Source: an uncultured Acidobacteriota bacterium
GTDB taxonomy: Bacteria > Acidobacteriota > JAQAZP01
NCBI GenBank assembly: GCA_963836075.1
Contig: CAWIIB010000009.1
Location: 1,248,001 to 1,312,000 of the forward strand
Length of the DNA stretch: 64,000 nucleotides
Reading direction: 5' to 3'
A program made the translations under genes and the position numbers. The notes below the pieces were generated by a model. The model made no database searches. It saw nothing but the letters and a program-made list of their open reading frames with translations, and was not told where the DNA came from. Below are positions 699 to 51,953 of this stretch, piece by piece (positions within the stretch are counted from its first letter, which is position 1; each line of letters opens with the position of its first letter).

Positions 699-1834
699 GT
701 GGAGAGTCTGTTTGCCAACCTGTCATCCTTCTTCGACCTGGCTGATGCAGAATCACGGGGTGCTGATCCTGCAGGCCTTCCTGGTGATCCTCGGTGCGGC
801 GGTGATCGACTTTGTCCAGCGCCGCCTGCTCAACCGCCTGGCCCGCCAGCTGGAAAAGACAAAAACCCCCTGGGACGACGCCTTCCTCGACTCGGTGCGC
901 CGGCCGCTCTCCATCCTGATCTGGGTGGTGGGCATCAGCTTTGCCGCGGAAATCGTGGTCCGTATTTCCCCCAACTACACGCTCATCTTCGAGGCGGTGG
1001 GGCCGCTGCGCAACGTGACGATCATCACCCTCTGCGCCTGGTTCCTGATCCGTTTCATCGGCCACGCGGCGAACAACGTCATCACCATGCGGCGCGAGGC
1101 GGGCAAATCAGGTGGACGTGGTGGCCGTGGAGGCCATGGCCAAGCTGGCCCGAATCTCGGTGATGGTCACCGCCGCCCTGGTCACCCTGCAGACCCTCGG
1201 CTTTGACATCGCCGGCATCTGGGCCTTCGGCGGCATCGGCGGTCTGGCCATCGGCCTGGCGGCCAAGGACCTGCTCTCCAACTTCTTCGGCGGGCTGATG
1301 CTCTACATGGACCGGCCTTTTTCACCCGGGGACTGGGTCCGTTCGCCGGACAAGGAGATCGAGGGAACGGTGGAGGAGATCGGCTGGCGGCTGACCCGTA
1401 TCCGCTCCTTCAGCAAGCGGCCGCTCTACGTGCCCAACTCGGTTTTCTCCACCATCACCGTGGAGAACCCGTCACGGATGACCAACCGGCGGATCAACGA
1501 GACCATCGGTATCCGCTACGAGGACTCGGGCAAGATGGGCGACATCACCGCCGAGGTGAAGCAGATGCTCACCGACCACCCGGCCATCGACGAGACCCTG
1601 ACCCTGATGGTCAACTTCAACAGTTTTGCCCCCTCGTCCCTCGACTTCTTCATCTACTGCTTCACCCACACCACGGTCTGGACCGAGTTCCACGAGATCA
1701 AGCAGGACGTGCTGCTGCGCATCGAGGCTATCATCGCCTCCCACGGCGCGGAGATCGCCTTCCCCACCTCCACCATCCACCTCGATGGCGGAGAGTCGGG
1801 TATCAGCCCGGAGCCGGAGCCAGAGAAACAGTAG
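699..1834 (+). CDS. mscS: Small-conductance mechanosensitive channel (MscS family), split by two apparent frameshifts (about 730 and about 1110)
   Basis: The C-terminal frame has GGIGGLAIGLAAKDLLSNFFGG, RPFSPGDW, GTVEEIGWRLTRIR and VPNS. The TM-rich N-terminal part lies in other frames (GTG 699, then the 589-1206 frame). Confidence 0.85.
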
Positions 1835-1849
1835 AAGGGTGAATACGGA

Positions 1850-2152
1850 TCAGCCTGCCGCGCTGAGGGCGTGAACCTCTTCATCGAGCCTTGTGCCGAG
1901 CTTGTCCTTTGTCACCTCCAGGTCGTATCGTGCCTGAAGATTGATCCAGAACCGCTCGGACATCCCGAAGAAGCGGGAGAGGCGCAGGGCAGTGTCGGCG
2001 GAGATTGCCCGTTTGCCGTGAACGATCTCGTTGATCCGTCGTGGTGGGACACTGATCTCCTTGGCCAGCCGTTACTGGCTGATCCCCATGGGAAGCAGGA
2101 ACTCTTCGAGCAGGATCTCCCCGGGATGGATGGGGTCGAGTTTCTTGGCCAT
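1850..2152 (-). pseudogene. higA: HigA-family antitoxin with an in-frame TAA at codon 27 (2072-2074)
   Basis: Manual translation gives [62 protein letters not shown]...FWINLQARYDLE. It is absent from the ORF track because of the stop. Confidence 0.9.
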
Positions 2153-2168
2153 GTTCCTCACCTGGTCT

Positions 2169-2240
2169 CTAGTGGTAGTCGACGATTTCGACACCGCGGG
2201 CCTGACCTTCCTTCCAGCGAAAGCAGATACGCCTCTTCCC
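2169..2240 (-). pseudogene. higB: C-terminal remnant of a HigB toxin
   Basis: Reads RICFRWKEGQARGVEIVDYH*, the typical HigB ending, directly upstream of higA. The 5' part is missing because the next gene ends at 2242. Confidence 0.8.
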
Positions 2241-48606: not shown

Positions 48607-49164
48607 ATGAGCACCATGAACAAGGAACTGCTGGAACTGTGGCCCGAAATAGAGTGGATCGAGGATAGTGAACTGCGGGAGAAAACCGCCCGCACCTGGG
48701 AACTGGCCCTGGAGCGCAGCGCGCTCACCGGCGAGGACCTGAAAGAGATCCCCTTCACCCTGCTGGTGAAGGAATGCCCGGCTTCCTTTATGGACCACAA
48801 GCGCTGCGTGGTCCACATCTCCCGCGACTCGGCGAAAGCGATGCAGGCCTTCTTCGGCGACAACCTGCCGATCCACATGGACACCGTGATCGCCGGGGCG
48901 ATCCTGGCCGATGTGGGCAAACTGCTGGAGTACGAGCTCAAGGATGGCAAGTCGGTGGTGGGGATGACCGGCAAGTATCTGCGCCACCCCTTCACCGGTG
49001 TGGCCCTGGCCATGGAGTGCGGGGTTCCCGAGGCGGTCTGCCACATCATCGCCGCCCATGCCGGCGAGGGGGACAAGGTGGTGCGCACCACCGAGGCCTA
49101 CATCGTCCACCACGCCGACTTCATGAGCTACGAGCCGTTCCGCACGGCTGACAAGTGGAAGTAG
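48607..49164 (+). CDS. HD-domain-like metal-dependent phosphohydrolase
   Basis: MDH...AILADVGK...RH...AH...HHADF. Confidence 0.75.
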   Translation: MSTMNKELLELWPEIEWIEDSELREKTARTWELALERSALTGEDLKEIPFTLLVKECPASFMDHKRCVVHISRDSAKAMQAFFGDNLPIHMDTVIAGAILADVGKLLEYELKDGKSVVGMTGKYLRHPFTGVALAMECGVPEAVCHIIAAHAGEGDKVVRTTEAYIVHHADFMSYEPFRTADKWK

Positions 49165-49176
49165 GCGGCAGTTCCT

Positions 49177-49187
49177 GTCATTGCGAG
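49177..49187 (+). repeat. Left fragment of the REP-like palindrome interrupted by IS110
   Basis: GTCATTGCGAG joins to 50846 to rebuild the left arm. Confidence 0.8.
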
Positions 49188-49239
49188 CCGCCGACCCGCT
49201 GGGGCAGCGGGAGATATGTAAAAGAAACAGTTCCTTGTA

Positions 49240-49440
49240 CAGTTAGGCTTTCACGGTCCTGGCAGCAATGACCGGCGGCACATTGGAGCACTGTTGCCCG
49301 CTTGCGAGCCTGGTTCCGGGGTAGGAGAAGGTCTGATTGGTGAAGCTCCGATTCTGGTTAGGCGCCCGAACGAAGCTATCCCGTTTAAGAGATTACTCGA
49401 CGATCTCCTCCGGGCCAGGGCCAGAAGTTAACCACCACAC
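49240..49440 (+). ncRNA. Candidate IS110 bridge RNA (boundaries approximate)
   Basis: The 5' non-coding region contains TTGCGAG (49302-08, equal to target left plus core), GCTCC (49345-49, complementary to target right) and TTAAGAG (49385-91, equal to IS right end plus core). Confidence 0.65.
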
Positions 49441-49453
49441 AAGGAACTGTCAG

Positions 49454-50842
49454 ATGAAGGATAGCAAGAAGAAGCGAGAGAAGTCACGGTCAAAGATGAA
49501 GAAGCTGGACGAGACGATGGAGCAGGTCAACCCTTCGGCGGCTGGTATCGACGTGGGATCCCGCAAGCATCTGGTGGCGGTATCACCGGAGCGGGATGAG
49601 CAGCCGGTTCGTTCGTTTGACTGCAAGACACCTGACCTGCATGAGATGGGCCGTTGGCTGACCAGTTGCGGCGTCACGACAGTAGCGATGGAGAGTACCG
49701 GGGTCTACTGGGTCCCGGTGGCCAATGTGCTGGAGCAGCATGGGCTGGAGGTGGTACTGGTGGATGCCCGCCAGTCCAGGAACGTGCCGGGGCGGAAGAA
49801 GACGGACGTGCTTGACTGCCAGTGGATCCGGAAGCTCCATGCCTACGGTCTTCTCCAAGGCGCCTTCAGGCCCGAACGTCAGATCCAGACGTTGCGGGGA
49901 TACTGGCGTCATAGAGCAGGTCTGGTGGAATCGCGTTCCACGCAGATCCAACTGATGCAGAAAGCACTGGAGCAGATGAACCTGCAACTGCATAAAGTAC
50001 TCAGCGACATTGCCGGCGTCACTGGCATGAAGATCCTCAGGGCCATCATCGACGGTGAGCATGATCCACAGGTGCTGGCCAAGATGAGGCACAAGCAAGT
50101 GAAGAGCAGCGAGGATGAGATCGTCAAGTCGCTGACCGGCGACTACCACGAAGAACAGTTGTTCATCCTCCAGCAGGCCGTGGAGCTCTACGATCATTAT
50201 ATGGAGAAGATCGCGGCCTGTGATGCCGAGCTCGAACGCTACCTGTCAACATTGGAGAGCAAGGGTGATCTGGCCGCCTATGACGGTAAAGCCCAGACCA
50301 GCCGTCGAAAGAACCAGCCCTGCTTCGACCTCAGGCAAGAGCTCTATCGCATCAGTGGTGTTGACCTGACCCGGATCGACGGCATCGATGCACTGACTGC
50401 CCAGACAGTGATCAGCGAATGCGGTATCAACATGAACCCGTTCCCCACGGTTAAGAACTTCTGTTCGTGGCTCGGCCTGAGCCCGAACAACAGGATAACC
50501 GGAGGGAAGATCAAGCGACGTGGGACACGCAAGGTGGTTAACCGGGCATCCACCGCGCTACGACTGGCGGCCCAAAGCCTCCACCGCAGTAACTCATACC
50601 TCGGTGCTTACCTGAGGCGGATGAAGGCCCGCATCGGGCCTCAAAAGGCGACAACTGCAACCGCTCACAAGCTGGCCCAGTTGATCTACCGGATGCTCAA
50701 ACATGGAATGACGTTCGTGGACCAGGGACAAGAGCTGTTCGAAAAGCAACATCAGGAACGATACCTGAAAGCTGTGAAAAAACGTTTGAAAGCAATCGGA
50801 TACGACCTCGTAGCGACAGACACCGGGGTTGTTGTTTCTTAA
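49454..50842 (+). CDS. IS110-family DEDD transposase/recombinase
   Basis: AAGIDVG, VAMESTGVYW, KKTDVLDC, FCSWLGLSP...TGG, TATAHKLA..IY.ML. RBS AAGGAA. Confidence 0.95.
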   Translation: MKDSKKKREKSRSKMKKLDETMEQVNPSAAGIDVGSRKHLVAVSPERDEQPVRSFDCKTPDLHEMGRWLTSCGVTTVAMESTGVYWVPVANVLEQHGLEVVLVDARQSRNVPGRKKTDVLDCQWIRKLHAYGLLQGAFRPERQIQTLRGYWRHRAGLVESRSTQIQLMQKALEQMNLQLHKVLSDIAGVTGMKILRAIIDGEHDPQVLAKMRHKQVKSSEDEIVKSLTGDYHEEQLFILQQAVELYDHYMEKIAACDAELERYLSTLESKGDLAAYDGKAQTSRRKNQPCFDLRQELYRISGVDLTRIDGIDALTAQTVISECGINMNPFPTVKNFCSWLGLSPNNRITGGKIKRRGTRKVVNRASTALRLAAQSLHRSNSYLGAYLRRMKARIGPQKATTATAHKLAQLIYRMLKHGMTFVDQGQELFEKQHQERYLKAVKKRLKAIGYDLVATDTGVVVS

Positions 50843-50845
50843 GAG

Positions 50846-50933
50846 GAGCCCGCAGGGCGACGAAGCAATCTCTCTTCAGGCATTCAAGTGCCGGGGAGAT
50901 CGCCACGTCGCCCTGCGGGCTCTTCGCGATAAC
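50846..50933. repeat. REP-like palindromic element (remainder)
   Basis: GAGCCCGCAGGGCGACGAAGCAATCTC pairs with GAGATCGCCACGTCGCCCTGCGGGCTC, followed by TTCGCGATAAC. Confidence 0.85.
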
Positions 50934-50942
50934 AGAGAGGGA

Positions 50943-51953
50943 TCAGCGGCAGAAGGTGCCGGAGCGGCCGTTGGCGGCGAGGGAGCGCACTTCATCTTCA
51001 CCGAGGCCGAAGGACTCGATGGCCAGAAGATACTCTTTGGCAATGTTGGTGCCCGACACGGTGGTGTTGTCGGTGCAGAGGGTGCAGGGAACCCCGTATT
51101 CGAGGAAGCGGGGCAGGGGGTGGTCCTTGATGTCGGTTATCGCCCCGGTCTGCAGGTTCGAGGTGAGGCAGCACTCCACCATGATGCCGTCGTCGGCCAG
51201 CCGGCGCAGCAGGGCCTCGTCCCTGCCGGCGCTGGTGCCGTGGCCGATGCGGTCCGGGGCCAGCAGTTCCACCGCCTGCCAGATCTTGTCCGGCCCGTCA
51301 GCCTCGCCCACGTGTACCGTGCGGTGGAGGCCCATTTTTTTCGCCAGGGCGTAGGCATCGGTGAAGAGGATCGGGGGGAAGGGCCGTTCAGGCCCGGCGA
51401 TGTCGAACCCCACCACCCCGGGGCCGCTGTGATACTGCTCCATCTCGCCGGCGATCTCCCGCAGCAGGATCTTGGCCATGTTGCCGCCATGGTTGCGCAT
51501 GGCGATGATCACCAGGCCCAGGGTCATCTCCGGTTGCTGCTCGCCGAACTCCTTGAGGCCGGCCAGGGTGGCGTTGATCACCTGGCGGGTGGTCAGGCCG
51601 GCCCGGCGGTGGATCAGCGGGTTGACCCGCAGCTCCAGCAGCCGCACACCTTCGTGCCAGGCATCCTCGGCGATCTCGTAGGAGATGGTGCGGATGTTGC
51701 CGTAAAACTGGGTGTACTGCAGCGGCACGTGGAACTTGTCCAGGTAGTCCATCAGCGTGCTGTCTTTCTTCGGGTCGTAGCGCAGCATCCGCTGGAAGCC
51801 GTGGAAATCCATGCCCGGGATGGCTTCGTAGTAGCGCTCGGAGAGGTCCCAGAGGGTGGAGGGCCGTATCGAACCGTCCATGTGCCGGTGCAGGTCGCCC
51901 AGGCCCAGGGTGCCGAGAAACTCCAGCCAGCGCGTCCTCTCCTTGTCGGTCAT
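50943..51953 (-). CDS. add: Adenosine deaminase-family metallohydrolase
   Basis: DLHRHMDGS, GFDIAGPE, TVHVGE, RIGHG, CLTSN, CTDN. Confidence 0.85.
   Translation of the reverse strand: MTDKERTRWLEFLGTLGLGDLHRHMDGSIRPSTLWDLSERYYEAIPGMDFHGFQRMLRYDPKKDSTLMDYLDKFHVPLQYTQFYGNIRTISYEIAEDAWHEGVRLLELRVNPLIHRRAGLTTRQVINATLAGLKEFGEQQPEMTLGLVIIAMRNHGGNMAKILLREIAGEMEQYHSGPGVVGFDIAGPERPFPPILFTDAYALAKKMGLHRTVHVGEADGPDKIWQAVELLAPDRIGHGTSAGRDEALLRRLADDGIMVECCLTSNLQTGAITDIKDHPLPRFLEYGVPCTLCTDNTTVSGTNIAKEYLLAIESFGLGEDEVRSLAANGRSGTFCR

Follow-up and report, generated by a model that had tools for sequence, protein, structure and literature searches.

A probable bridge RNA with covarying target and donor guides in the leader of an AG-core IS110-family element

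The 266 nt leader (49188-49453) that lies immediately 5' of an IS110-family recombinase gene very probably encodes the bridge (seek) RNA of an autonomous, AG-core insertion sequence (IS), which is inserted in a palindrome resembling repetitive extragenic palindromic (REP) elements. The DNA is from an uncultured Acidobacteriota bacterium (assembly GCA_963836075.1), and positions refer to the window, which is the whole 64,000 nt stretch that was analysed. The element is 1,658 bp in length (49188-50845, with the right-hand AG counted inside it and the junctions set by guide matches). Related leaders have a common fold in which the paired strands covary, and two segments of the leader covary with the DNA at the ends of the element. 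The boundaries of the element can be located, and it is present in several genomic contexts. It belongs to a known kind of system, as an AG-core, ISPpu9-like member of the IS110 family.

A sequence-only reading of this leader had proposed a bridge RNA with guides and extra complementary segments, and that proposal agrees with the domain matches of the recombinase, the shared fold and the covariation of guides and flanks. The six motifs which it named each occur once in 49188-49453, at the positions given (TTGCGAG at 49302, GCTCC at 49345, TTAAGAG at 49385, GCAATGAC at 49265, CGGCGGC at 49273 and CTCCTC at 49405), and the letters of the window show the flanking sequence as it was described. Of the six, the pair TTGCGAG and TTAAGAG alone is clearly beyond chance on the window sequence, and alone is confirmed by homologous elements.

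Guides for the left target and the left donor

Related loci were taken from genome records (80) and from metagenome contigs (80). The leader alignment was built from 60 leaders, to which 57 were added using mafft --keeplength to give 117; L047 and L033 are excluded from it, and the truncated rows L024, L035 and L056 were also excluded from the stem tests. Chance estimates were obtained by shuffling the leader 20,000 times with dinucleotides preserved. This is a very large family, in which at least 8,000 database proteins reach E 1e-30 or better. Plasmids of cyanobacteria, rhizobia, Burkholderia and clinical Enterobacteriaceae carry relatives that are about 47-53% identical. Three database proteins (P0002-P0004) are nearer relatives, at 85-89% amino acid identity, and their leaders are outside the comparison. 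The segments that were borne out are as follows.

49302-49308, + strand: left target guide TTGCG plus core AG, covarying with the left flank
49309-49310, + strand: handshake-like extension CC, the same as the first two bases of the element (49188-89)
49385-49391, + strand: left donor guide TTAAG plus core AG, covarying with the right end

Each module has a conserved CCCGTT followed by variable bases which end in AG. This AG closes the target guide in 116/117 leaders and the donor guide in 109/117, the remainder being truncated rows. The core had been written as GAG/AG, of which the AG part stands; the core of the family is AG.

The seven bases of the target guide recur 111-141 nt upstream, at the left junction. 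A match of at least 6/7 at the left flank was found with the own guide in 97 of 103 loci, compared to 128 of 2060 with foreign guides, and the guide columns have an identity of 0.93-0.98 with left-flank positions -7 to -3, where 0.27-0.55 is expected (n=97). In the same way, the seven bases of the donor guide recur just 3' of the recombinase gene, with a 7/7 match for the own guide in 73 of 85 loci and for foreign guides in 37 of 1700; column identity with right-end positions -6 to -3 is 1.00 (expected 0.38-0.87, n=85). These are the two segments that the sequence-only reading had assigned to the left target and left donor, each with its core, and the covariation of leaders with target and donor sites, which it had named as a check, was found for both.

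The two bases that follow the target guide also carry a signal. The first is identical to base 1 of the left end in 0.93 of loci (expected 0.61), and the second to base 2 in 0.76 (expected 0.28), a value reached in 0/5000 permutations (n=97 for both). As this signal played no part in calling the junctions, it validates the calls. In the longest-run test the left flank against the target guide gave a z of 11.8 and every other |z| was below 2. The closest relatives compared, at 61-63% amino acid identity, share both the CATTGCGAG target and the target guide with the window element; they have TTAGG-AG in the donor guide and right end alike, where the window has TTAAG-AG in both. For two relatives present in multiple copies, the left flanks match the guide in 5/6 and 6/7 copies. 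On the window sequence itself, the chance of finding TTGCGAG in a shuffled leader is 0.026 and that of TTAAGAG is 0.025, and for both in that order it is 0.0002.

A relative at 47.5% amino acid identity, L210 (Citrobacter freundii plasmid NZ_CP086288.1, 105841-108936), is found on IncFIB-type plasmids of Citrobacter, Enterobacter and Klebsiella, and its leader architecture and inverted repeats are alike. Its target-guide position is A-rich, ends in AC and not AG, and matches an AAAAAAC flank, and its donor guide differs from the right end at 1 position; this copy may be fixed or degenerate.

The fold of the RNA

One fold is common to the 117 leaders. An outer stem is followed by two internal loops, each capped by a hairpin, and the folds of individual leaders agree with this architecture. 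Its parts in the window are listed below, with the position of a promoter-like box.

49238-49243, + strand: -10-like box TACAGT, a putative internal promoter of the bridge RNA
49255-49422, + strand: structured core of the bridge RNA, closed by outer stem P1, 49255-63 GGTCCTGGC with 49414-22 GCCAGGGCC
49270-49315, + strand: target-binding loop, with basal stem GACCG 49270-74 and TGGTT 49311-15 (family TGGTY) and apical hairpin P2, 49284-49300
49275-49281, + strand: V1, a variable segment (GCGGCA), with C49281 after it, in the 5' strand of the target loop; the putative right-target-reading position of the family, overlapping CGGCGGC
49316-49413, + strand: donor-binding loop, with stem P3 formed by 49316-19/49410-13, 49323-28/49404-09 and 49331-33/49399-401
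49339-49381, + strand: apical hairpin P4 of the donor loop, with a GGTGA...TATCC base and a variable stem, 49344-77

The strands of P1 pair with an energy of -22.0 kcal/mol, compared to -10.7 kcal/mol when one strand is taken from another leader, and the own partner was the best in 32/57 cases and among the top five in 55/57. The corresponding values for P3 are -13.3 and -8.4 kcal/mol, with the own partner best in 12/54 and in the top five in 33/54. RNAalifold recovered the basal stem of the target loop and P2 with compensatory changes; at one basal-stem pair the counts are GC 37, GU 12 and AU 7, and at another AU 31, GU 25 and GC 4. The RNA was assigned to the + strand because G-U pairs are abundant in the stems. 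P4 varies freely in length and sequence among homologues and has no complementarity signal to any flank, and the 5' strand of the donor loop, at ~5 nt, is without a guide.

A -10-like hexamer (at least 4/6 matches, with A2 and T6 required) is present in 78/98 leaders, 64-73 nt upstream of the end of the target guide, a count that carries no shuffle control. The fixed distance suggests that the promoter would be internal rather than formed at a junction. A simple promoter and terminator scan returned nothing on the + strand of the leader. In a metatranscriptome run a single contig of 258 nt matches, covering 49176-49409 only, and this is a weak hint that could equally come from DNA.

In the window copy, 49275-80 is largely complementary to 49303-10 (the left-target guide and CC), and the target loop is therefore predicted to be self-closed in the free RNA; this self-complementarity of V1 and target guide is absent from the other leaders looked at.

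The element, its ends and its copies

The recombinase has the DEDD_Tnp_IS110 and Transposase_20 domains and scored 259.5 bits against NCBIfam NF033542 ('IS110 family RNA-guided transposase'), for which the cut-off is 140. Only 3 nt of the element remain after its stop codon.

49175-49187, + strand: left half of the REP-like target, made up of CTGTCATTGCG and the core AG (49186-87); within it the guide reads TTGCG, 49181-85, as the left target
49195-49211, + strand: hairpin CCCGCTG-GGG-CAGCGGG, in a left terminal extension of ~34 nt
49222-49229, + strand: left subterminal inverted repeat AAGAAACA, an inverted copy of 50833-40
49454-50842, + strand: IS110-family DEDD recombinase gene, 462 amino acids (PF01548 8.6e-22, PF02371 3.6e-11)
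50833-50845, + strand: right end, with subterminal inverted repeat TGTTTCTT (50833-40), a 3 nt extension AAG and core AG (50844-45); TTAAG (50839-43) is the left donor
50846-50933, + strand: right half of the REP-like target, a long palindrome which begins GAGCCCGCAGGGCGACG

The insertion sits in a REP-like palindrome, with an HD-domain gene on one side and an adenosine deaminase gene on the other. With a slash marking the boundary, the left junction reads ...GTCATTGCG-AG/CCGCCGAC, or with more of the left half ...CTGTCATTGCG-AG/CCGCCGAC, and the element begins at 49188. The right junction reads ...TTCTTAAG-AG/GAGCCCGC, also written ...GTTTCTTAAG-AG/GAGCCCGC, and 50845 is the final base of the element. 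The intact repeat ...CATTGCGAG/GAGCC... is found uninterrupted in many copies elsewhere in the same genome, which has 56 CATTGCGAG sites in total, and the target is therefore a REP-like element with AG at both junctions.

Besides the full copy, the genome has one truncated copy, which matches 49176-49860 of the window with a single mismatch at 49191 and is preceded by other upstream DNA. The contigs of three unrelated DNA runs also carry the element, at 99% identity or more, and depart from the window at 49175-85 and 50845-49. Among the contigs from other runs matched to the element no joint of an empty site or of a circle junction is listed, and the parts which these contigs leave uncovered are not evidence.

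The truncated copy (L002, C9:619901-623585; element part about 1500-2185, minus strand) retains an intact leader and the first ~135 codons, and ends near the equivalent of 49856, where it is joined to another REP-like unit. The only other trace of the IS110 family in this genome is an unrelated fragment on contig C1 (L212, C1:35778-36521, minus strand), a partial IS110-family-like open reading frame which at 81 bits is below the family cut-off and has no relation to the subfamily of the element at the E 1e-5 level.

The hairpin in the left terminal extension was judged by eye to resemble the palindrome GCCCGCAGGGC (50848-58) of the right target half. Such a hairpin is typical of the family, as 82 of 96 distinct left ends fold at -5 kcal/mol or below over their first 34 nt, with a mean of -8.4 kcal/mol compared to -6.0 kcal/mol when shuffled. 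The subterminal inverted repeats covary as a pair across 51 elements (AAATAAC/GTTATTT, AACGAAC/GTTCGTT and AAGGAAC/GTTCCTT, for example), and the longest inverted repeat shared by the two ends of one element is 7.9 nt on average, compared to 5.8 +/- 1.3 nt for ends taken from different elements (n=51).

A repeat of ~60 nt is found at about 20 of the 56 CATTGCGAG sites (such as L014, L009, L010, L012 and L018); it opens with the left half of the target and AG and then resembles the first ~45 nt of the element: CC[C/G/A]C[C/T]GACCC, a hairpin and an AAGRAAC box. It often continues with a GTTCTT-like inverted box, after which an intact REP unit follows directly. These may be orphan derivatives of the element ends, or derivatives like miniature inverted-repeat transposable elements (MITEs); no simple insertion fits them. 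In a relative, L079, the DNA 3' of the right end exactly repeats the start of its own left end, CACCTCAGACACTGCG, so that this is either two tandem copies or an assembled circle junction.

The right side of target and donor

The right target appears to be read from the 5' strand of the target loop. Across the family the three 3'-most bases of V1 complement right-flank positions 1-3, with 1.25 complementary positions per locus compared to 0.79 +/- 0.08 when permuted (0/5000 permutations, n=85), and a z of 4.0 was obtained for V1 against the right flank in the first 36 loci. For the two multi-copy relatives mentioned above, the right-flank base 1 is predicted to be A, and it is A in 4/7 and 6/7 copies.

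Several results weigh against a bridge RNA with this layout, and some of them concern the right side. The family signal at the right flank is weak, at 0.45, 0.38 and 0.44 for positions 1-3 where 0.25-0.29 is expected, as would suit a right-target guide that is short. V1 of the window predicts TGCCGC and the actual flank is GAGCCC, so that 2/6 positions fit. The sequence-only reading had not found a right donor guide, and this absence extends to the whole family: none was detected by a column-by-column comparison of 36 loci, by longest runs against own and foreign flanks, or by a mutual-information scan, in a search that covered P4, the linker, the stretch leading up to the donor-loop hairpin and the strand that follows the donor guide. 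The scan used 69 left and 61 right junctions, as some of the added leaders, with shifted coordinates, lost theirs. Against the left end, the longest-run and mutual-information tests gave no covarying column or segment other than the two bases after the target guide. Recognition of the donor is therefore only half explained, as its right guide was not detected.

The other points against this reading are more general. The left junctions were called using the target guide itself, which makes the identities of flank and guide partly circular; this is offset by the foreign-guide control and by the signal in the two-base extension. The recombinase has only remote similarity, at an E of about 1e-4, to the IS621 and ISCro4 recombinases of solved structure. 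Single-sequence folding is unremarkable (z -2.45 for the whole leader and -1.5 for the core), a result that is not decisive either way. Scanning 48900-51100 against Rfam 15 at E up to 10 gave no match to a bridge RNA model, although Rfam 15 may hold none, and returned miRNA-like and snoRNA-like noise that fell mostly on the REP palindrome. Finally, the ends of the RNA, its expression and its binding by the recombinase are, like the strand chemistry and the promoter, inferred from sequence.

Two candidates for right-side recognition were rejected. Complementarity of the end of the donor strand to left-end bases 4-8, hinted at by eye in five related loci, failed across the family. Use of the donor-loop bases after the core as a handshake guide for the right flank was too weak, at 0.34 compared to 0.20 for base 1 and with nothing at base 2. 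The miRNA-precursor matches at 50843-50925, on both strands, are spurious and sub-threshold and reflect the REP-like palindrome of the right half.

Alternative readings of the leader

It is improbable, if not negligibly so, that V1 in the window (49273-81) reads the right side of the donor, that is the left end CCGCCG, instead of or besides the right target flank. Were this so, the missing right donor guide would be supplied from within the target loop. The segment is a perfect 7 nt complement to G+CCGCCG, no other right donor guide was found, and similar palindromes are present in the left end and the right target half, as the article text on ISPpu9 also describes (PMC12288879). Against this, V1 is not complementary to the left end at the level of the family, and the match requires a register shifted by 2 nt. 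The truncated second copy has the same V1 with a CCCCCG left end, which is a mismatch, and folding of the free RNA pairs these V1 bases with the target guide and the CC that follows it.

The layout of the sequence-only reading, with TTGCGAG, GCTCC as right-target guide and TTAAGAG in an IS621-like order and with GCAATGAC and CGGCGGC as extra guides, is very unlikely, even though all of its motifs are present. GCTCC occurs in 28% of shuffles (a chance of 0.28) and forms the 5' arm of the variable P4; homologues with the same target are unrelated there, and the right flank against P4 has a z of 0.0 in the family. GCAATGAC (49265-72) has a shuffle chance of 0.003 for that one fixed 8-mer, before allowing for the many alternative flank 8-mers. 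It spans the linker and three bases of the conserved basal-stem strand GACCG, which pairs with 49311-15, and it is unique to this copy. It is lacking from 9 other leaders with the same target, in which the mean longest match is 5.11 nt compared to 5.10 nt in 106 others, a group that itself included at least 4 same-target leaders. CGGCGGC (49273-79) perfectly complements the core G and the first 6 bases of the left end, as had been proposed, with a chance of 0.025; it covers two stem bases and V1 in a register 2 nt off that of the family, it pairs in the free RNA with the target guide and CC extension, and V1 against the left end has a z of at most 1.2 over five registers. CTCCTC (49405-10), a further proposed complementary segment (chance 0.049), is the 3' strand of P3 and pairs with 49323-28. 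What holds of the non-canonical layout is that it is unlike IS621; its proposed form does not, as the putative right-target-reading segment is 5' of the left-target guide and not between TTGCGAG and TTAAGAG.

It is equally unlikely that the conserved fold serves chiefly as a regulatory 5' untranslated region, acting on translation of the recombinase or on transcript processing, with incidental flank matches. A long structured 5' untranslated region is described as inhibiting translation in ISPpu9 (PMC12288879, article text), and in the window 49227-38 is a perfect 12 nt complement of 49439-50, which covers the ribosome-binding site, but this pairing is barely enriched in the family (6.45 compared to 5.68 nt) and translational control cannot explain guide-flank covariation at 5+2 and 5+2 positions with foreign-guide controls. 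The regulatory and guide roles are not exclusive. The 12 nt pairing connects the sequence just 5' of the putative promoter with the ribosome-binding region, which lies 4 nt ahead of the start codon, and would block translation only in read-through transcripts that started outside the element.

Proposed mechanism

If the leader acts as a bridge RNA, the RNA would extend over ~49255-49422 and its start would probably be a few bases past the -10-like box at 49238-43. In the target loop, the left-target guide is followed by CC, which equals the first two bases of the element and resembles a handshake guide. On the 5' strand of this loop, the final bases (~49278-81) would, by the family-wide complementarity, read the core G with the 1-3 right-flank bases next to it, and TTAAG-AG on the 3' strand of the donor loop would pair with the right end of the element and the core. 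The RNA-bound DEDD recombinase would then join the circular junction of right and left ends (...TTAAG-AG-CCGCC...) to the target (...TTGCG-AG-GAGCC...), with strand exchange predicted at AG.

Comparison with IS621, IS1111 and ISPpu9

The comparisons here are with the article text of the papers cited. IS621 has guides, a 2 nt core and handshake guides (PMC11208160, PMC11208158). In its target loop a stem is followed by the left-target guide (A50-U58), a stem loop, the right-target guide (G77-G80) and a handshake guide (81-82), and the core is CT (PMC11208158). The present element is like IS621 in that the RNA is from a long non-coding left end, 5' of a DEDD/Tnp recombinase, and has two internal loops, for target and donor, with guides which take in the 2 nt core. 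Also alike are the 2 nt extension past the core, which matches partner DNA as handshake guides do, and what appears to be a short specificity for the right flank. It differs in the core, which reads AG on the recombinase strand and CT on the opposite one, and in the order of the target loop, which is reversed: the left-target guide is 3' of the apical hairpin and the bases that appear to read the right flank are 5' of it. Here the handshake-like bases come after the left-target guide, the donor loop lacks a second guide, and the element has a terminal extension of ~34 nt and subterminal inverted repeats, with protein similarity at an E of about 1e-4. When read on the opposite strand, the 3'-strand guide with its two-base extension has the form of the right-target and handshake guides of IS621, with a CT core. 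For this reason the polarity of the crossover appears to be inverted, relative to the RNA and recombinase genes, when compared to IS621.

In IS1111-type seekRNAs the complement of the top strand is 5' of the match to the bottom strand, and the elements have subterminal inverted repeats of 11-13 bp with a left extension of 6-7 bp and a right one of 3 bp (PMC11187229). Their non-coding region is usually downstream of the recombinase gene, with a few upstream exceptions such as ISMtsp17 (PMC11187229). The order seen here, with V1 (a top-strand complement) 5' of the target guide, is that of the seekRNAs, and the element likewise has covarying subterminal inverted repeats, with 3 bases between the right repeat and the core. 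In contrast, its non-coding region is upstream of the recombinase gene, its left repeat is 31-42 nt from the end and not 6-7 bp, and its repeats are 7-11 bp and not 11-13 bp. As judged from the list of organisms, no close protein match to the common IS1111-type elements was found among the plasmid hits at E 1e-10 or better.

The element itself is ordinary, and it is the family which provides a readable guide map for AG-core, ISPpu9-like elements, consisting of a 5+2 nt left-target guide, a 2 nt handshake-like extension, a reading of ~1-3 nt of the right flank across the loop, a 5+2 nt donor guide and no second donor guide. In the article text of the literature searched, without figures or supplements, an AG-core or reversed-order IS110 layout was met only in the statement by Siddiquee on the IS1111 order and in the ISPpu9 paper. 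The guide map of the subfamily may be an undescribed variant, and the figures and supplements of the 2024 papers may already cover it. Tentatively, and with the balance tipped against it, the subfamily could be a third, uncharacterised architecture of RNA-guided DEDD recombinases, which would combine an upstream guide RNA as in IS110 with an IS1111-like guide order and subterminal inverted repeats, an AG core and a single-guide donor loop. On this doubtful reading the other side of the donor would be read only by the 2 nt extension of the target loop, perhaps together with the hairpin-bearing extension of ~34 nt, mimicking the right half of the target; and if such an architecture were real, strand exchange would have the opposite polarity to that in IS621 with respect to the RNA and recombinase genes. 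Recombinases guided by bridge or seek RNAs are under development as programmable DNA-insertion tools, for which natural diversity sets the layouts that can be engineered. If the present layout is absent from the supplementary catalogues of 2024, it links the IS110-type to the IS1111-type arrangement and bears on how donor ends are recognised.

In described features, as distinct from sequence or guides, there is a likeness to ISPpu9 of Pseudomonas putida KT2440. This has AG at both ends as its crossover point and inserts into REP elements (PMC12288879), and it has a left-end box of 43 bp, with a palindrome like one in the right half of the target, and a right-end box of 16 bp (PMC12288879). It has a native promoter, and MITE-like derivatives (MITEPpu9) with end-like boxes are scattered at REP elements (PMC12288879); its long structured 5' untranslated region inhibits translation (PMC12288879). 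The present element shares with it the AG ends, the REP target and a left-end palindrome which resembles that of the right target half. It also shares the short right-end box and, as far as the -10-like box goes, a native promoter, and its ~20 left-end-like repeats are comparable to the short derivatives of ISPpu9.

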